Source: a virus (lineage: Duplodnaviria; Caudoviricetes). From it: DNA of 36,700 bases. The stretch is taken from positions 1-36,700 of IMG/VR virus record IMGVR_UViG_3300025718_000124; one strand, 5' to 3'. The translations under genes were made by a program, and so were the position numbers. This document shows positions 1 through 36,700 of the stretch, one piece after another. Under the pieces are notes generated by a model, which ran no database searches, was not told where the DNA came from, and saw nothing but the letters and a program-made list of their open reading frames with translations. Each line of letters opens with the position of its first letter. Position 1 is the first letter of the stretch.

Positions 1-551
1 AGAGGCAAATGGAAAAAGACAAATTCTACTTTTGAATCTGAAATAGAATTCTATGATTATGTTAGATATTGTGTACTAAAAAATAATAATAATATTAACT
101 TTGATGTACCAATTATAATTGTAAGTGATAAAAAGTATAATTTGAGAATTGAAGCTGGATTGCCCCCGGTTAACGCATTTTCTCCTAGTTTAGTTATTCG
201 TATACATAGAAATGATACAAATGTAAATTTAGAAAAGTTATATTTAATAAATGAAATGCTTAATTCTGATATATATAAATTGTTAAATGATTTTGTAATT
301 AAGGAAAAAAATATTGTGATTTGTGGCAAGGGCGGAAGTGGAAAAACTACTTTACTTAGAGCGTTAATAAACAAAATTCCTGACAATATAGCTATAACAA
401 CAAACGAGGAAACCATGGAATTATTTATAGAAGGTAAAAATGTAATTCAAAGAGAAATTTTAGAAAACAGAGAAGAATCTAAGAAGATTACTTTAGATAA
501 GTTAATGAAACACAGCTTAGTCATGTCTAATGATGTAATAATTATAGGTGA
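1..551 (+). CDS. cpaF: Host CpaF/TadA/VirB11-family pilus ATPase, 5' part (begins before window; interrupted by prophage)
   Basis: Frame 1 is open from base 1 (RGKWKKT...). Walker A GKGGSGKTT, Asp-box-like TNEETMEL, Walker B DVIIIG cut at GGTGA 547-551. In the lysogen it reads on into phage DNA to a stop at 588. Confidence 0.88.
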
Positions 552-2136
552 TACGTTCCGCACCAAAAAGCAAATTATTGCCATTTAGTGCAAACTCAAA
601 AAAATCTATATTTACATTTTCTTTATCTATGTTTACACTTTTTACTATACTTCTCAAAATATCTTTCTTTTCTTCAAAATCAGAATTATTATATATTGTT
701 TGAAAATTAAATACTTGCTTAGTTAAAATTTCAATATTCATCTTTTTATTTTCATTTATCCTAACTTGTTCATCTTGCTTTTGTAATTCGTTTATGATCT
801 CTTTTTTTCTAACATCTAATTTTGTTACTTCAGATTTGATATAATCCTTAAGACAGTCATCTTCAATTAATTGTAAAATCAATCTACTTATTTTAGATTC
901 AATAACATCTATTTCAGATATAAGTACGCTTTTTTTAGCATGTATCAAAGAATAATCAATATTATCATTTTTGATGGTTTTTAAGTTTTTAAATTCATTA
1001 CAGTATTTTATCAATTCAGATTCAACTATATTTTCGATTTTACCAGCTTGTATACAACCTTTATTATCACAAGCATTAAGAATACTACTACCACAAGAAA
1101 AATGTATGTATGGCTTGTTTCTGTTTGTTGTAGTTGACTTTGTCATCATTACTTTACCACAGTGTGAACATTTTACTAAACCGCTTAATACACTTAGTTT
1201 AGATTGACCTTCACGTGGGGCAAAAGATTTATTTTTAGATAGTTTCTCCTGGACTTCTATCCATTTATAAGAATCTATAATTCCTTTATGTTTTCCAACA
1301 ACGATAACAACATCTTTTAAATCATTATTTTTTATTGTTTTATTAAAAGCTATAACTCCATTTTCATTATTGAAATCATCTCTAATAGATTCAATCATTA
1401 TATTTCTTGATAAAAAATAGTTATATATATCTTGTCCGGCTTTTACATATAGAGTATTTCTTAATATTTCAGGTAAACGTGTATGATCAAAGTATTTTCC
1501 GCTTTTTGTTTTGTATCCATTATCATTTAACCATATAGCTAGTTTTCTTATAGACATACCAGGATCTAAATATTTATCAAATATCATAGTTATAATTTTA
1601 GATTCTTCTTCGTTAATTTTTAATGTAGGTGTTTTTTTACCATTTATTATCATTTGCTCTTTATCATATCCAAGAACTATTTTACCGCCCACAAAGTTAC
1701 CTTGTAGGGCTCTATATCTAGTACTGTCTTTAATACGTTGTGAAATCGTCTCTCTTTCAAGCTGTGCAAAAGTCATAACTATATTTATCATAGCACGTCC
1801 CATAGGAGAGTTATTATCTATATTTTCAGTTGCACTCATAAATTCAGCATTATTATCATTAAAAATAGTTATTAGATTTACAAAATCAGCAAGACTTCTA
1901 CTTATTCTATCTAATCTATATGCAATAACTTTATTAATCTCACCATCTTTAATAAGGCTCATCATTCTTTTAAATTCTGGCCTGTTAGTATTGCTTCCAG
2001 AGAATCCTTTATCGATAAAAACTTCATATTCCCAATCATTATTATCACAGATATTCTTACAAGAATTAATTTGTGATTCGATTGAAACACTATCTTTTTT
2101 GTCAAGACTTTGTCTTGTGTAGATTGCTACTTTCAT
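517..2136 (-). CDS. Large serine recombinase (integrase), prophage form 539 aa
   Basis: YTRQS catalytic motif, DKGFSG, RLDRISR, recombinase domain, Zn ribbon CSHC...C...C and coiled coil. The ORF runs through attL. Confidence 0.95.
   Translation of the reverse strand: MKVAIYTRQSLDKKDSVSIESQINSCKNICDNNDWEYEVFIDKGFSGSNTNRPEFKRMMSLIKDGEINKVIAYRLDRISRSLADFVNLITIFNDNNAEFMSATENIDNNSPMGRAMINIVMTFAQLERETISQRIKDSTRYRALQGNFVGGKIVLGYDKEQMIINGKKTPTLKINEEESKIITMIFDKYLDPGMSIRKLAIWLNDNGYKTKSGKYFDHTRLPEILRNTLYVKAGQDIYNYFLSRNIMIESIRDDFNNENGVIAFNKTIKNNDLKDVVIVVGKHKGIIDSYKWIEVQEKLSKNKSFAPREGQSKLSVLSGLVKCSHCGKVMMTKSTTTNRNKPYIHFSCGSSILNACDNKGCIQAGKIENIVESELIKYCNEFKNLKTIKNDNIDYSLIHAKKSVLISEIDVIESKISRLILQLIEDDCLKDYIKSEVTKLDVRKKEIINELQKQDEQVRINENKKMNIEILTKQVFNFQTIYNNSDFEEKKDILRSIVKSVNIDKENVNIDFFEFALNGNNLLFGAERITYNYYIIRHD
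541..568. other. attL (core GGTGA 547-551; phage arm CGTTCCGCACCAAAA)
   Basis: The phage-side arm is an imperfect inverted repeat (13/15) of the attR arm TTTTGGTGTAGAACG, as expected for a serine-integrase attP. Confidence 0.9.
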
Positions 2137-3690: not shown

Positions 3691-4116
3691 CTATTTTTTA
3701 CCTGGCTTAAATTGATACCCACAGTTCATACATGTCAGTTTAAGATTATTTGCTCCTAATCCACCGGCTAATACTCCAACATCAAGCATTCCACCTGTTA
3801 TAGTTGTACCAATAACACCTTTTACAAAACCGAAACCTTTTTTATTAGCTGACAAAGAAGTAGAATGACACTTTAAGCAATAAGGTATTTTATCCTTTTT
3901 AAGCTGTTTTAATCTTTGAATTTCTTCTGCTTTCTCATTCTGCTGTCTTTTAGCTTCTTCTTTTACTTTATCCCAAAAACTAAGTTTAGATTTATCAGAT
4001 TGGATAATATTATCAGCTTTTTCTAATTTTAGTTCATTTTCTGATACTTTGCTTCCACATTTCTTGCAAAATACATCTTCCTCGGATGTGAGATTTCCAC
4101 ATTTATTACAATACAT
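3691..4116 (-). CDS. Zinc-ribbon domain protein of the lysogeny module
   Basis: N-terminal CNKC...CKKC and C-terminal CLKC...CMNC flanking a Gly-rich segment. GAGGTG RBS. Confidence 0.8.
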   Translation of the reverse strand: MYCNKCGNLTSEEDVFCKKCGSKVSENELKLEKADNIIQSDKSKLSFWDKVKEEAKRQQNEKAEEIQRLKQLKKDKIPYCLKCHSTSLSANKKGFGFVKGVIGTTITGGMLDVGVLAGGLGANNLKLTCMNCGYQFKPGKK

Positions 4117-4132
4117 TTATAATTCACCTCAC

Positions 4133-4762
4133 TTAACTAAACTTACCTCTTAGTTCTACAACTTTACCTGAAATAATAATAGGTAGTTTTTCTATATCCT
4201 CATTTGAATAAAATTTAGGCATATAGAAGTTGTTCAATGGAATTAGTGTAATTCCATTGCTATCTCTTGAAATACGTTTTATAGTAGCATCTAAACCATT
4301 TATAAGTATCACTGCTATATCACCTGATTCAACATCAGATTGTTTGCGTACTATAACAACATCTCCTTCGACAAATCGAGGTAGCATACTGTCGCCCTTT
4401 ACGACAAGTCCAAAATGTTCACCGTGTGACGCCATTTCTTTAGTTATTTCTTCATAGTCAATAATCTCTTCAAAAGCTTCCATTGGTATGCCTGCTACTA
4501 CTCGTCCAAGTACAGGAATTTTTATTCCTTTAGTAGTAGGATTAATACTAACATCATATCCCATTAACCATGATTCATTTACATTAAGGATCTCTGCAAT
4601 TACTGTAAGTTTATCTTGTTTAGCATTATATTTTCCTGATAGATAATGACTAACTGATGATTTTTCTAATTGATCTTTACTCTTTAAAACTAAGTCTGAT
4701 GGTTTCATATTTCTTAATATTAAAGCCTCGTTTAAACGTTCGGCAAAAGTTTTTGTTTTCAA
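4133..4762 (-). CDS. CI/LexA-like repressor (XRE HTH + S24 autopeptidase)
   Basis: N-terminal HTH, VAG cleavage site, GDSMLP serine motif, TIKR lysine. Confidence 0.93.
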   Translation of the reverse strand: MKTKTFAERLNEALILRNMKPSDLVLKSKDQLEKSSVSHYLSGKYNAKQDKLTVIAEILNVNESWLMGYDVSINPTTKGIKIPVLGRVVAGIPMEAFEEIIDYEEITKEMASHGEHFGLVVKGDSMLPRFVEGDVVIVRKQSDVESGDIAVILINGLDATIKRISRDSNGITLIPLNNFYMPKFYSNEDIEKLPIIISGKVVELRGKFS

Positions 4763-4836: not shown

Positions 4837-5176
4837 TGTTAACTTTTCTTAACTTTTTTGCAAAAACTGTTGACAAAAAAAAATATACATGGTAAGATTG
4901 ATTTAGTTAAGAAAACTTAACTAGCTGGAGGTGAATTATGAAAAATAAAATTACATACAATTATAATAAATTACGCGGAAAAATAAAAGAAGTGTTTGAA
5001 GACGAGCAGTTATTCGCTCCTGAAATAGGTATGAGTAGAGTATCTTTAAGTTATAAACTTAATAACAAAGTATCCTTTTCACAACATGAAATAAGTAAGT
5101 CAGCAGAGCTATTAAATATAACAGATGAAGAAATCAATCTATATTTTTTTACCCAATGAGTTGAGAAAACTTAACT
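4837..5176. promoter_or_regulatory. Genetic switch: three 18-bp operators AGTTRAGAAAASTTAACW and rightward sigma-A promoter
   Basis: Operator copies at 4837-4854 (reverse), 4905-4922 and 5159-5176. Promoter TTGACA 4870-4875, 17 bp, TG-G-TAAGAT to 4898. Confidence 0.8.
4938..5159 (+). CDS. Cro-like HTH regulator (DUF739-like)
   Basis: YNKLRGKIKE...SLSYKLNNKVSFSQHEI...YFF; divergent from repressor; GGAGGTG RBS. Confidence 0.88.
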   Translation: MKNKITYNYNKLRGKIKEVFEDEQLFAPEIGMSRVSLSYKLNNKVSFSQHEISKSAELLNITDEEINLYFFTQ

Positions 5177-6654: not shown

Positions 6655-8608
6655 ATGATATTAAATAAATTAATAATAAAGAATTTTAAAGGTATAAAAA
6701 ATTTGGAAATAAATTTCAACGGTAGAAATACAAATATATATGGAGAAAACGCAACACGGTAAAACAACAGTCTATGACAGTTTCATGTGGTTATTATTTG
6801 ATAAAGACAGTACTAACAGGAAGGATTTCAATATAAAGACTATAGATAAAAAAGGATCTCAAATACATATGCTGGAGCATGAAGTTGAAGCAACTATAGA
6901 AGTAAATGGTAAAGAGATTACTATAAGAAAAGTTATGGAAGAAAAATGGACTAAAAAAAGAGGATCCGCAGAACAAGAATTTTCAGGTCATGAAACAAGT
7001 TGCTATATAGATGAAGTACCTGTTAAGAAATCAGAGTACCAGGATAAGATAAATAACTTAATGGATGAGAATATATTCAAATTACTAACTAATCCAGTTT
7101 ACTTTAATACAATGCTTAAATGGCAAGATAGAAGAACTATGCTATTAAGTATAACTGGTGATATGTCTGATGAACAAGTTATAGATTCAGATATAAAATT
7201 AATTAGTTTAAGAGAAATACTAAATGGTAAATCTACTGAAGACTATGGGAAAATAATAAAAGAAAAAATAAAAAGACTTAATGAAGATATAGAGAAAATT
7301 CCTACTAGAATCGATGAATTAAATCACAATAAAGAAACATTAGAAAAAATAGACTATGAATCAATTGAAAAAGAAAAAGAATTTGAATATATAAAACTTA
7401 ATGCTATAGATGAACAATTAAATAGTGCTGGAGCTGTAAATGAAAAATATAATAATAAGCTTATTGTAATCAGTCAATCAAAAAATAAACTAGCTAATAT
7501 TGAAAGAGAAATTCAAATCAATGCTTCAAGAGAAATTATGGATAAAGAACTTAAATTAAATAATTTTAAATCAGAAAAAAAGAATGTTGAATTTAGAATT
7601 GATACATTAAAACATAGTGTTGATAGTGTTACTAAATATTTAGATGAATGTAGTAAAAGAAGAAAAGAATTATATAAAAAATATGATGAAGCAACTGAAA
7701 CTAAATTTGTTGATCCAGATGAAAATAATTTCAAATGTACTACATGCGGACAATCTCTTCCTGGTGATGATATTAAAACTAAAATTGAAGATATGAAGAA
7801 CAGTTTTAATAAAAATCAACGTGAAACTATAGAAAAAATAAACAAAGAAGGAAAATTTGTAACAGAAGATGCAAAAGCACATGAATTAAAAGTTGACGAA
7901 TACAAGACTGAATTAAAACAAAATGAAGAATTACTAACTATGATTATGAGCGATATAGCAAAAGCTGAAATAGATATCAAAACTATAAATGATAATAAAA
8001 CCGAAATAGATTACACAGGTTCTAAAGAGTACACTCAAATTAAGTCACAAATAGCTCAATTAGAAGCAGAACTTAATAAACCAGTTGAGGATATGTCTTT
8101 AGCTTTAAAACGAGAGAAAATGGAAATACAGAACAAGATAAATGATTTGAATAAGCAATTAGCTAATAAAGAAGTAGAAGAAAAGACTAATGCTAGAATT
8201 GAACAACTTGAGCTTGAAGAAAGAAATCTTGCTGAAAAAATAGCAGAGCTAGAAGGGCATAGATACTTGATCGAAGAATTTATTAAAACAAAAGTAAATA
8301 TGTTAGAGGAGTTTATAAATAGTAAATTTAAAGTAGTTAGGTTTAAATTATTTGATACGCAAATAAATGGTGGTCTTAACGAATGTTGTGAAACTCTTGT
8401 TAATGGAGTACCTTATTCAGATGTAAACAACGCTGGTAAGATAAATGCAGGTATGGATATAATAGCTACATTAATAGAACATTTTAGAAAAAAAACGCCA
8501 ATATTTGTAGATAATGCTGAAAGCATAAATGATTTATACAATTTAGATACACAGATAATAAGATTATTAGTTAGCAGAGATAAACAATTGAAAGTAGAGG
8601 TAATTTAA
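6655..8608 (+). CDS. SbcC/Rad50-like coiled-coil ATPase; needs +1 frameshift at CGG 6757
   Basis: MILNKLIIKNFKGIK...IYGENAT in frame 0 joins GKTTVYD in frame +1 to give the Walker A. CTTC zinc hook; PIFVDNAES Walker B. Confidence 0.9.
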
Positions 8609-32671: not shown

Positions 32672-33427
32672 ATGTACAATATGAATAGTTTTATATCATG
32701 GGTAGGAGGCAAAAAACTTTTACGAAAAGAAATATGTAATATGATACCTGACAAAATAGATAGATATATTGAAGTGTTTGGAGGTGCTGGTTGGGTATTA
32801 TTTAACAAAGAAAGGCATGCATCAATAGAAATATACAATGATTATAATTCAGAACTAGTGAATTTGTTTAGATGTGCTAAATTTCATACACCAGAACTTC
32901 AAAGAGAGTTAAAATATATTTTAAATTCAAGAGAAGTTTTTCAAAATTTTAGAGAAGAATATCAAGCTAAAGGTTTAACTGATATACAAAGAGCTGTTAG
33001 ATTTTTAATGATCGTAAAAACAAGTTATGGAAGCAAGACAACTACATTTGGAGGTAAACCTACTAATTTAAATAATTTGCCTGAATATTTAGAATTAGTT
33101 TCAGAGAGATTAAGTAGAGTAGCAATAGAAAATAAAGATTTTGAAGATTTGATAATTTCACAAGACAGAGAGAAATCATTATTTTATTTAGATCCTCCAT
33201 ATTATGAAACAGAAAATTATTATAAAAATGTTGAATTTAAAAGAGAAGATCATGAAAGATTATATAATTGCATAAGAAACATTAAAGGTAAATTTATATT
33301 AAGTTATAACGACTGTGAATACATTAGAGAATTATACAAAGACTATTGTATAAAAGAAGTTAGTAGATTTAACAATTTATCTTTTAAAGTAAAAGAATTT
33401 AAAGAACTAATAATAACAAATTATTAA
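32672..33427 (+). CDS. Orphan DNA adenine methyltransferase (Dam/D12 class)
   Basis: WVGGKK, YIEVFGGAG, YLDPPY, ELIITNY. Confidence 0.93.
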   Translation: MYNMNSFISWVGGKKLLRKEICNMIPDKIDRYIEVFGGAGWVLFNKERHASIEIYNDYNSELVNLFRCAKFHTPELQRELKYILNSREVFQNFREEYQAKGLTDIQRAVRFLMIVKTSYGSKTTTFGGKPTNLNNLPEYLELVSERLSRVAIENKDFEDLIISQDREKSLFYLDPPYYETENYYKNVEFKREDHERLYNCIRNIKGKFILSYNDCEYIRELYKDYCIKEVSRFNNLSFKVKEFKELIITNY

Positions 33428-33655
33428 TTTATTTTAATATTACAGCTATATTACATTTGTGTTAAAACAGTGTAAAAACGATAAAATATTTAGTTAAAAT
33501 TGATAAAAATACTTGCACTTATTGATTTTTTTTTTAATACAATATATAATACAGATAATAAAAATTATCATGACATGGGAAAGTTTGCTTGTTTTCATTG
33601 ACAAATTATGTAAACTGTGGTACAATATATCAATATAAAAAAGGAAGTGATTAAA

Positions 33656-34099
33656 ATGTTTAGTGTTTTTGACGTTGCAAATGAATTTTTGAGTATAAAT
33701 AGTGTAAGTCATAAAAAATTACAAAAATTATGTTATTATGCACAAGGTTGGAATTTAGGATTACTAGGTACTGAACTTTTTAACGAAGAAATACAAGCAT
33801 GGATACACGGTCCAGTATGTCCCACTTTATATAATAAATATAGAGGTTATGGTTATGAAGAAATACCTAAAGAAGAATCTAATAATACAGATGAAAATTT
33901 TAAAAGATCAATTGGACAAATATATAGAATTTATGAAGATTTAGATGGTGATGATTTAGAAGCGAAAACACATAATGAATTTCCATGGAAAAATGCCAGA
34001 CATGGATTACAATCTTGGGAATCATGTAATAGAGAAATAACAAAATTATCTATGAAGTTATATTTTAAAGAAGAGTTTAGTAAAATTGCAAGCGCTTAA
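33656..34099 (+). CDS. Panacea (DUF4065/SocA-like) antitoxin
   Basis: KLQKLCYYAQG, QAWIHGPV, TH.E.PW. Promoter TTGACA-17-TACAAT at 33598-33626. Confidence 0.9.
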   Translation: MFSVFDVANEFLSINSVSHKKLQKLCYYAQGWNLGLLGTELFNEEIQAWIHGPVCPTLYNKYRGYGYEEIPKEESNNTDENFKRSIGQIYRIYEDLDGDDLEAKTHNEFPWKNARHGLQSWESCNREITKLSMKLYFKEEFSKIASA

Positions 34100-34739
34100 T
34101 ATTAATGAGATACAAAAACTTACTAAATCACAAATAGAAAGCATAAAATCATATAGTTTGTTAGGTACAATTGAAAAAGAAAAGTCAGATAACACTAAAA
34201 ATAAGAAAATAGTGATATCATTTGTGTTTTTTGATAGAGATAATCCATTATTTAATTTAGGTGAAATACAAGATAGTTGGTACTTAGCTTTAATTGATTT
34301 GATTACAGATATATCAAAAATAACAAAATCTGAATTACGTAGTGGGGAATATAAAAACAGATACGATCCACACAATTATATAGATGACATAGAAAAATTA
34401 AATTATCTGCATCCTCTACTAATTGATGTACAAAGAGAAGCATGTCAAATCAGAATTACTAAAGGGAAAGGTAGAATACATGGATTTTTTATTGATAATA
34501 TATACTATATTGTATTTCTGGACAACCATCATAATATGTATGATAGCCCTCATTATGAAAAATCCCGAAAATTGATCCAACCAAAAACAGAATATGAAAT
34601 ATTAGAAGAAGATTATAATGAATTATGCAGTAATTTGGTCCTATCAAAACAAACTTATTTGAAAATTGATGAATTTATGTATAAAAATTGTATTGAATGT
34701 GAAAAAGGTGAAAAATTTATAAATGACATAAAAATTTAA
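34086..34739 (+). CDS. Putative cognate toxin (RelE-like fold + coiled tail)
   Basis: Overlaps the antitoxin stop; GRIHGF....YYIVFLD..H..Y motif. Confidence 0.65.
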   Translation: MQALNINEIQKLTKSQIESIKSYSLLGTIEKEKSDNTKNKKIVISFVFFDRDNPLFNLGEIQDSWYLALIDLITDISKITKSELRSGEYKNRYDPHNYIDDIEKLNYLHPLLIDVQREACQIRITKGKGRIHGFFIDNIYYIVFLDNHHNMYDSPHYEKSRKLIQPKTEYEILEEDYNELCSNLVLSKQTYLKIDEFMYKNCIECEKGEKFINDIKI

Positions 34740-34770
34740 AGAAGTGGAGATTAATTCTCTACTTCTTTTA
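34738..34770 (+). terminator. Terminator after TA operon
   Basis: AAAGAAGTGGAGA-TTAAT-TCTCTACTTCTTTT. Confidence 0.7.
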
Positions 34771-34884
34771 TGCTTCTTCCATTTCATGATATTTTATTAC
34801 TATTATTCTATAAAAGTTTTTTAAATAAGGACTTTTCAGTACAATATAACAACATATAATGAACATTAAAAAGTAGTGAAATTA

Positions 34885-34943
34885 GACTTAAAATCCTGCG
34901 ACCTTTAAAAGCCGTATCGGTTCGATTCCGATCATTCCCACCA
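34885..34943 (+). pseudogene. 3' half of tRNA-Leu(UAA), relic att site
   Basis: GACTTAAAATCCTGCG...CGT-ATCGG-TTCGATT-CCGAT-CATTCCC-ACCA; no D arm or 5' acceptor strand upstream. Confidence 0.85.
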
Positions 34944-34953
34944 GTAATGCCAG

Positions 34954-34988
34954 GCAGTTATACATATTTTGTATAACTGCTTCTTTTT
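34954..34988 (+). terminator. Terminator after tRNA fragment
   Basis: GCAGTTATACA-TATTT-TGTATAACTGC-TTCTTTTT. Confidence 0.8.
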
Positions 34989-35072
34989 GTTTTTATGACA
35001 ATTTCTAACATTTTTCTAACTAAATATTTATTTTGTTTGTTTTGTGTGATATAATAGTATAAGGTGATTTAG

Positions 35073-35978
35073 ATGTTTGAGATTAATTCATACTATATAA
35101 ATAGACAAGATAATGCTGATAATAGATTTGATATTGATAGATTAAGAAAAGCAATTGCCCTATTTTATGTTAATCAATCTGATGAGAATGGAATATTAAA
35201 TTTTAAATTAAATGGTGGAGAAATTAATCATAAAGGTAAAAAATGTATAAGTAAATCAAAATTATCTATAATTAACACTAGTTTTCAAGTTCAAACAGGA
35301 ATTGAAAAAGATATATATCCTTTTGATAATTATTTAATGCATGATAGGGGCTGGACAATAGAGCAACTATATACAGTAATAGAATTTATGTATATGTTTT
35401 CAATAATTGGTGTTTCTCAGTCAGAAAGGCAATCATATAATACTATTGAAGATCTGATTGCAGAAATTGAAAAAAGAGGAAGAGCATATTATGTTGAAGC
35501 TATAAATTATTATTTACAAAATTATGATAAGTCAATACAATTATCTATAGATGGATATGTATGTAATGTTGATAGTAACGCTGAAGAGTTAATAAATACA
35601 GTTATAGAGACAAATGCAACTGATAATATAGATAGTCTAATAATTAGAGCTAAAAGTAAATTTACAAAGATAAACAGTACAATAGAGGATAAAAAGGATG
35701 CTATTAAAGATTTAGGGGATGTATTAGAAAGAATAAGAGATGTTATTTATAATGAACTTTTACCAAACGAGAAGATATTATTTAATACAATAATAAATAA
35801 AAGTGAAAATCTTTCCTTTGAATTTCTAAATAATTATAATATAAGACATAATAACCTGAGACAAAAAAATCTTGTTGATAAAGAAATTTTTTACAAGTAT
35901 ATGTTCTATGAGATATTAAATTTGATTATTATGAAAATAGAACTTAAGCAGTTGCAAGATTCAAATTATGAATTTTAG
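35073..35978 (+). CDS. AbiJ-like abortive infection/defence protein
   Basis: C-terminal KKDAI..L.DVLE..R...N.YNIRH, seen in Abi/HEPN-like domains; own TG-A-TATAAT promoter. Confidence 0.55.
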   Translation: MFEINSYYINRQDNADNRFDIDRLRKAIALFYVNQSDENGILNFKLNGGEINHKGKKCISKSKLSIINTSFQVQTGIEKDIYPFDNYLMHDRGWTIEQLYTVIEFMYMFSIIGVSQSERQSYNTIEDLIAEIEKRGRAYYVEAINYYLQNYDKSIQLSIDGYVCNVDSNAEELINTVIETNATDNIDSLIIRAKSKFTKINSTIEDKKDAIKDLGDVLERIRDVIYNELLPNEKILFNTIINKSENLSFEFLNNYNIRHNNLRQKNLVDKEIFYKYMFYEILNLIIMKIELKQLQDSNYEF

Positions 35979-36014
35979 ATAATGTATTCTTTATTTAAAG
36001 AATACATTATCTAA
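35975..36014. repeat. Perfect 19-bp inverted repeat (bidirectional terminator-like)
   Basis: TTAGATAATGTATTCTTTA-TT-TAAAGAATACATTATCTAA. Confidence 0.8.
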
Positions 36015-36107: not shown

Positions 36108-36165
36108 ATGACAATATAGAAAACATTCCCGTTTACTCAATGTAAACAGGATCGTTTTTATTTAT

Positions 36166-36402
36166 TCATATTAATATCTTTTCTAGTTTCATATGATGTT
36201 TTTTTCTTGGAAGCTCTAAATCATTTTCCCACCTATGTATAGTTCTAATTTGTACTCCTAATAGTTCAGATAATTTCTTATATGAAATACCATTTTTTAT
36301 AATAGTATATTTTATCTTACCACCTAAAGTATTCGTGTCTATGATATCTAATGTGTTTTGCTTAATTTCAATACGTTTATTGATTGTATTTTGGTGTAGA
36401 AC
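36166..36402 (-). CDS. Start-less XRE-HTH reading frame; becomes integrase C-terminus after excision
   Basis: 78 sense codons: TLGGKIK....KNGISYKKLSELLGVQIRTIHRWENDLELP. In frame with integrase Thr530 across attP. Confidence 0.8.
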   Translation of the reverse strand, partial: VLHQNTINKRIEIKQNTLDIIDTNTLGGKIKYTIIKNGISYKKLSELLGVQIRTIHRWENDLELPRKKHHMKLEKILI

Positions 36403-36416
36403 GGTGAGTTAAAAGG
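36389..36416. other. attR (phage arm TTTTGGTGTAGAACG; core GGTGA 36403-36407)
   Basis: Core shared with attL; the host ATPase frame resumes at GGT GAG. Confidence 0.9.
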
Positions 36417-36700
36417 AGCCGAAGCTTTAGTGTTCTTTGATGGCATAGCAACAGGACACATGGGCCTTACAACAGTGCATTCAGATAGTGTATATAATAC
36501 GTTAGATAGACTTACAACGTTGATTAAAAGAGATCCTAAGGCACAATCATATAAAGAAGAATTTGTAAATCAAATGCTTTCAAGTAGTATTAATTATATA
36601 ATATTTATGAAGGACTATAAAGTAAATGAAATAGCAGAAGTTTATTATGACAGACACATACAAAAAACAATAATTAAAGCTATATTAACATATACAAAAA
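36403..36700 (+). CDS. cpaF: Host CpaF/TadA ATPase, 3' part (runs off window)
   Basis: GELKGAEA...TGHMGLTTVHSDS....DRL is the Walker B end plus His box. Confidence 0.88.

Follow-up and report, generated by a model that had tools for sequence, protein, structure and literature searches.

Which integrase does a temperate phage make before and after integration when its attachment site lies inside the integrase gene itself? The question is raised by a 36.7-kb virus record, here called the window (the whole stretch of DNA analysed, 36,700 nucleotides), which contains a complete-looking temperate phage, a clostridial prophage inside a pilus-ATPase gene. The following features are relevant.

1..551, plus strand: 5′ part of the host TadA/CpaF-type pilus ATPase gene (T2SSE profile 86–217)
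517..2136, minus strand: large serine recombinase, 539-aa prophage form (Resolvase, Recombinase and Zn-ribbon domains)
547..575, plus strand: left junction, core GGTGA (547–551) and attP half-site within the integrase ORF
4133..4762, minus strand: phage repressor, HTH and S24 peptidase (profile match), intact and far from att
36127..36151, minus strand: terminator-like hairpin, 15 nt beyond the TGA of the tail
36166..36402, minus strand: stranded integrase tail, 78 codons and TGA (stop at 36168–36166)
36382..36407, plus strand: right junction, attP half-site and core GGTGA (36403–36407)
36403..36700, plus strand: 3′ part of the host TadA/CpaF ATPase gene (T2SSE profile 218–273)

The host gene is split at its Walker B motif (DVIIIG-E) and its two arms match consecutive stretches of the T2SSE profile; their reciprocal join, made in silico by coordinate, yields a continuous TadA/CpaF ATPase. 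An intact CpaF homolog (P0284) is 98% identical to the left arm, and other homologs are annotated as CpaF and come from Clostridia-like records. Among the 120 CpaF homologs listed, two are interrupted at the codon where the host gene of the window is cut, and their contigs are equal in length to those of two short integrases. In public run X2, a contig from a related strain has an empty attB precisely at the junction of the window. The attP reconstructed by in silico joining is symmetric about the GA dinucleotide at 16 of 24 positions, compared with at most 9 of 24 at the nine other centres tested and at most 8 for attB. The window thus displays the symmetric attP, short common core and reconstructable attB that are features of large serine integrases. 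In two public runs, where contigs show presence only, no contig with the attP junction of this phage was found.

The phage carries an integrase, the S24 repressor, a cro-like gene, a RecT module, head and tail genes (labelled from a reading of their translations) and an M23 peptidase. A 17-bp operator-like motif occurs three times with 0–1 mismatch around the repressor/cro region (4838–4854, 4905–4921 and 5159–5175). Upstream of recT, a gene for an SMC-like ATPase has an apparent frameshift inside its Walker A motif (6655–6762 vs 6740–8608), with the N-terminus on a 35-aa ORF and a 622-aa ORF that begins at GKTT; this may be an assembly error or a real lesion. Cargo 3′ of the lysis gene (32672–35978) comprises an adenine methyltransferase, a Panacea/SocA-like antitoxin (33617–34099), a possible toxin partner for it in the next ORF (217 aa), and an ORF of 301 aa that matches nothing in Pfam. 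A perfect hairpin with 19-bp arms (35975–36014) lies at the end of the 301-aa ORF and faces the terminator-like hairpin of the tail.

The original prediction held that the integrase has no stop before attL, and this is confirmed: the ORF runs through the core, which encodes residue T530, and ends in host DNA, with the last nine residues and the stop (517–546) derived from antisense cpaF. At attR, the predicted 78 stop-free codons are present on the minus strand (36402–36169; p ~0.001 at local composition), as is the in-frame TAA just beyond the core (36411–36409, minus strand). The tail was also said to have no usable start before its HTH, and indeed no ATG, GTG or TTG is available there, the sole ATG being near the end of the frame; the ribosome-binding words GGAG, AGGA and GAGG do not occur in the first 130 nt. 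Without a start codon, the tail could be produced only as an integrase fusion. Joining the two halves at GGTGA in silico is in frame and reproduces the proposed 608-aa circle form alongside the 539-aa prophage form. The tail features a linker and a predicted β-strand, followed by an XRE HTH at approximately 36175–36312, with the fold taken from a model of the natural long form P0004. This HTH had been described as clear, which is only partly borne out: it does match HTH_3 (PF01381), but it only just passes, with 23.8 bits against a cut-off of 23. Terminator-like hairpins were found at two sites in the 800 bases scanned, compared with a shuffle mean of 0.0, and on the circle the one behind the tail would provide the integrase transcript with its 3′ end.

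The enzyme has the domains of a large serine integrase, namely Resolvase, Recombinase and a zinc ribbon with coiled coil, and a catalytic serine near residue 10; R8, S10 and four cysteines are invariant in the alignment. All three core domains are retained within the 539-aa form, and suicidal inactivation was rejected on this basis. A profile search recognized no candidate for a recombination directionality factor (RDF) among the ORFs near the integrase, although this says little because RDFs are not conserved.

Both states of the gene are found in the closest relatives. The six nearest of the 120 homologs listed are all either long and HTH-fused or short and ending in antisense cpaF: P0004, P0005, P0006 and P0007 (615, 615, 688 and 695 aa) carry one or two HTHs, whereas P0002 and P0003 (539 and 537 aa) have the cpaF-derived C-terminus. 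In a quick tree, from which P0148 and P0181 were omitted, P0003, P0004, P0127, P0006, P0007 and the window enzyme form one clade with 99% SH-aLRT support. Three 90% protein clusters contain long and short forms together. One of these holds 615-aa and 539-aa forms that diverge at the junction, and the other two have long (714–718 aa), short (570–575 aa) and stand-alone tail (151 aa) members. This clade shows none of the arrangements that would contradict a state-dependent fusion, namely an early stop, an out-of-frame HTH or an HTH with its own start. A phage contig (L167) encodes a long form with a symmetric attP within the ORF and the same module order as the window; besides the window's own record, it was the one long form among the 80 loci listed in a metagenome scan, which, like the other collection scans, amounts to a sample. 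Most of the 120 homologs listed have a normal C-terminus with no extension. A viral-contig scan with a single integrase query returned no relative, an alignment-based scan returned only ordinary enzymes of ~500 aa with no extension, and a region search with the P0006 tail matched P0006 alone.

The layout extends to elements in other genes. In comM, in-frame double-HTH forms of 698, 707 and 711 aa can be reconstructed in three of three genomes, and the join restores comM. Carriers available as non-pathogenic cultures are Maledivibacter halophilus for a comM element and Sellimonas caecigallum for a sigK element. For sigK, a scan of 30 genomes (7 with no pattern match) gave 32 matches, of which 20 sigma-factor regions were analysed; exclusion of 10 intact genes left 10 split genes with both ends, some of the paired ends being on different contigs of one genome assembly. 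In-frame forms of 784–807 aa result in six of these ten, and in the other four the tail is lost after a few codons. Five more long forms were among the best 150 of a representative search. The record of phiCP51, which has been named as a temperate phage (PMC5027557), encodes a 655-aa integrase–HTH whose ORF contains an inverted repeat of 19 nt; in two proviruses that are 99% identical to phiCP51 the integrase ends at residue 570, and in provirus G034 the tail is located at the far end. A search for the tail gave a match in three of five provirus records, one match being weak and interrupted, and none in the other two.

Conservation of the fused frame is therefore mixed farther out: it holds in comM, sigK and phiCP51 elements, but lost tails, −1-frame tails and start codons in the core also occur. 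In L306, L329 and L331 (near 4090–4110 and 5380) the HTH tail follows a run of 9–10 A at the integrase end and is in the −1 frame, which suggests programmed slippage; L306 has an additional break, and in L348 there is an HTH frame in +1. The comM and phiCP51 groups have an in-frame ATG within the core, so that the tail might be made alone. Strong hairpins follow the tails at five sigK loci, and those after some comM tails are weak.

Several further arrangements were observed in this family. The sigK-group tails of L247, L248, L253, L261 and L262 have an extra conserved segment of 60 residues before the HTH pair. In P0147, L303, L304 and L103, all integrated forms, the integrase frame continues into the C-terminal half of ComM or SigK, and a sister protein, P0152, has a double-HTH tail in place of that half. 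The 112-kb provirus record G039 (L280 and L292) has a long form mid-record and another integrase at the end, an arrangement that tandem elements separated by an intact attP would produce. Phage phiS63 is inserted in sigK (PMC3442830). Serine-integrase elements of S. suis are reported to lie inside an HTH-XRE gene (PMC7168690), and this could be the present split layout seen from the opposite side.

The tails of relatives have dN/dS values of 0.29–0.37 in four pairs, compared with 0.26 for the integrase body. Silent changes have reached saturation in three more sigK tail pairs, and a very close sigK pair goes the other way, with six replacement changes and one silent change. Purifying selection on relatives' tails is thereby shown, and the DNA anatomy and the existence of both states in relatives are also established. 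The bodies of phiCP51 and G034 differ by two changes in 510 codons and their tails are only 71% alike, so any interface between body and tail must be tolerant. An alignment that combines the window tail, the repressor and 24 other tails shows recognition helices that are highly variable and specific to each element. The window's HTH has no arginine in helix 1, a residue that is usual in XRE HTHs.

The model of P0004 (pLDDT 82, pTM 0.44) features a disordered att-encoded linker (519–532), a strand (534–541) and an XRE helix bundle, and in a Foldseek search it matched solved complexes of serine integrases best. Assignment of the tail to the XRE class thus draws on the HTH_3 match, the tail alignment and the helical fold in this model. 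Complex prediction for the zinc-ribbon/coiled-coil part with the tail scored 0.53 (best control 0.27), which is weak support, as scores of up to 0.60 take in only 18 of 157 solved complexes along with both passing mismatches (2 of 215), and the test pairs two halves of one protein; predicted contacts agree to at least 86% and partner pLDDT is at least 79. Searches near attP found no arm-type repeats above shuffles, and repeat searches found no operator common to the int promoter and other phage regions above shuffles.

A mechanism is proposed in which attP sits in the 3′ end of the phage's own serine-integrase gene and integration into cpaF would sever the 78-codon HTH tail together with its hairpin; excision would rejoin the tail and the terminator-like hairpin to the gene. 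On the circle, whether infecting or excised, the long form would act as a high-activity integrase, and in the prophage the short form would be an attenuated, stabilizing enzyme, an assignment to which we give slightly less than an even chance. We infer that the long form must integrate, because the infecting phage can encode only that form, and that the short form must excise, because the prophage can encode only the short one; excision by the short form would probably involve a separate directionality factor, and until induction the short form would keep the prophage stable. The first β-strand of the tail is predicted to dock on the zinc-ribbon domain and to set the HTH beside DNA beyond the core site, where it could raise affinity for attP or target DNA or help to lock attL/attR. 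The tail is deleted in four of ten sigK elements that presumably still excise, so it is likely to serve a function in the attP state; if those elements do excise, the tail would seem dispensable for excision. With a −1-frame tail the circle would yield mostly short enzyme, hence the tail would not be essential for integration there, and these variants suggest that integration is not strictly dependent on it. Since both reactions seem possible without it, the tail is most likely a modulator of the attP state, acting on affinity or as a product lock. A lower activity of the integrated form has been reported for the Mx8 integrase (PMC4701971). Against the assignment of high and low activity to the two forms stand the lack of arm-type repeats, the variable recognition helices, the missing helix-1 arginine in the window, the divergent tails on near-identical bodies, the −1-frame tails, the core ATG of the comM and phiCP51 groups, the extension-less homologs, the close sigK pair with an excess of replacement changes and the provirus records with no tail match.

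Some of the same observations would suit a transcriptional role. The tail could be a circle-specific regulator, an XRE HTH dimerized by the integrase that represses int or an early promoter while attP is intact and so reports the recombination state to the lysis–lysogeny decision; we consider this possible, if on the unlikely side. The canonical XRE fold, the sub-threshold matches of relatives' tails to repressor models (RstR and DicA among them), the element-specific recognition helices and the exchange of tails between identical bodies are consistent with such a role, and the coexistence of in-frame, −1-frame and core-ATG tails would be expected if dose matters. A state-specific repressor also has a precedent in BPs (PMC4557955). 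However, no operator shared with the int promoter rises above shuffles, the sole clear operator-like motif is confined to the cI/cro region, and the phage has its separate S24 repressor. Because of that repressor, a reading of the tail as the main phage repressor was rejected.

A built-in directionality factor near the coiled-coil hinge is improbable. The long form would block re-integration or, where the core holds an ATG, the free tail would trigger excision in trans. The zinc-ribbon domain and the coiled-coil hinge are where RDFs bind, and integrases with a C-terminally fused RDF are functional (PMC11722253); the docking score, although weak, the stand-alone 151-aa tails called in two clusters and the lack of a recognizable RDF candidate beside the integrase point the same way. 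Yet a long form locked into excision could not integrate a phage that encodes that form alone, the tail in the window has no start codon and sigK elements without a tail exist. Still less probable is a switch of stability only, in which tail and terminator set the half-life of protein or mRNA and the HTH surface has no role on DNA. It would account for a hairpin that is acquired only on the circle and for the strong hairpins 3′ of five sigK tails, and the removed part of the BPs repressor is a C-terminal degradation tag (PMC4557955), but a whole folded HTH, often doubled and under purifying selection, is hard to reconcile with it, as are the weak hairpins after some comM tails. Chance read-through into a decayed HTH gene in frame beside attR, for which the marginal Pfam score and the lack of an attP contig in two runs might speak, is very improbable and was rejected as largely refuted by conservation, given natural long forms in the closest clade, at three target genes and in the phiCP51 record.

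The preferred reading, a tail that modulates the integrase in the attP state, can be set against known systems. The window shares its domain order, symmetric attP, short core and insertion in a host gene with phiC31, Bxb1, A118/LI, SPbeta SprA and the sigK-intervening elements. In model serine integrases attP is outside the integrase ORF and directionality comes from a separate RDF.

The original prediction drew its analogy from mycobacteriophages with attP within the repressor gene. The analogy is apt for state-specific forms, which BPs also makes from an attP inside a gene (PMC4557955), but the split gene there is the repressor and the removed part a degradation tag, whereas the window phage has a separate, unsplit repressor and no attP within it. 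Closer parallels are Mx8 and the streptococcal rumA ICEs, in which the att site is inside the integrase gene. In Mx8 and Mx9 attP is within int (PMC6070905, PMC4383910), and as in the window, integration of Mx8 replaces the C-terminus by a short host-encoded stretch, 13 residues in place of 112 (PMC6070905, PMC4701971); the resulting enzyme is described as altered or lower in activity. Mx8, however, encodes a tyrosine recombinase, a family to which the window integrase does not belong, and the accessible text mentions no HTH domain, whereas the window has a serine integrase that loses a folded XRE domain on insertion in a protein-coding gene. The rumA ICEs do have a serine integrase with attR in its gene and an excised form that differs in length and C-terminus, and a functional difference between the forms has been proposed (Ambroset et al., PMC4701971). 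In the available text, no added domain is described for these conjugative elements, which reciprocally exchange 3′ ends with rumA, whereas the window holds a tailed-phage-like prophage with its integrase antisense to cpaF. Archaeal suicidal integrases (SSV1, pTN3, pT26-2) likewise have the recombination site in the integrase gene, with N- and C-parts at opposite ends of the element that can be reassorted (PMC8371274, accessible text). They belong to the tyrosine family, and their split separates the catalytic part and inactivates the enzyme, in contrast to the intact domains in the window. That an integrase is altered by its own integration is thus a published principle, as the available texts on Mx8, archaeal suicidal integrases and rumA ICEs attest. 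A search of the full-text literature, subscription papers and supplements lying outside it, found no account of a serine integrase that gains an HTH domain on excision, and the available main texts of Durrant et al. (PMC10083194), ProBord (PMC13626063) and Integrase-On-Demand (PMC12884075), supplements aside, mention neither HTH nor helix-turn-helix.

The layout in the window is real and conserved. The claim that recombination rewrites the recombinase stands as far as a state-dependent fusion is concerned, on the evidence of the clusters, the reconstructions and phiCP51, and the closest clade is free of the arrangements that would contradict it; the activities assigned to the two forms are more tentative, as are the roles suggested for the HTH in directionality, autoregulation or target choice. 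This instance is distinguished by an entire phage, by cpaF as the target and by a tail that lacks a start of its own. Directionality control is a central question for serine integrases, for most of which, to our knowledge, no RDF is known, and here the state of the recombination product decides which integrase protein is made. On a broader reading that we regard as rather unlikely, directionality in a widespread clostridial branch of serine integrases would be set by a domain that recombination adds or removes: the circle would make an integration-committed integrase–HTH, the prophage enzyme would excise with little or no RDF, and lineages would tune the tail through fusion in frame, a −1 frameshift or a core start codon. 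For integrase mining, enzymes taken from integrated copies in this branch are truncated and end in a host-encoded tail, and their activity may be misstated. Through its targets cpaF (a pilus ATPase), comM and sigK, the switch is linked to host functions that excision probably restores.
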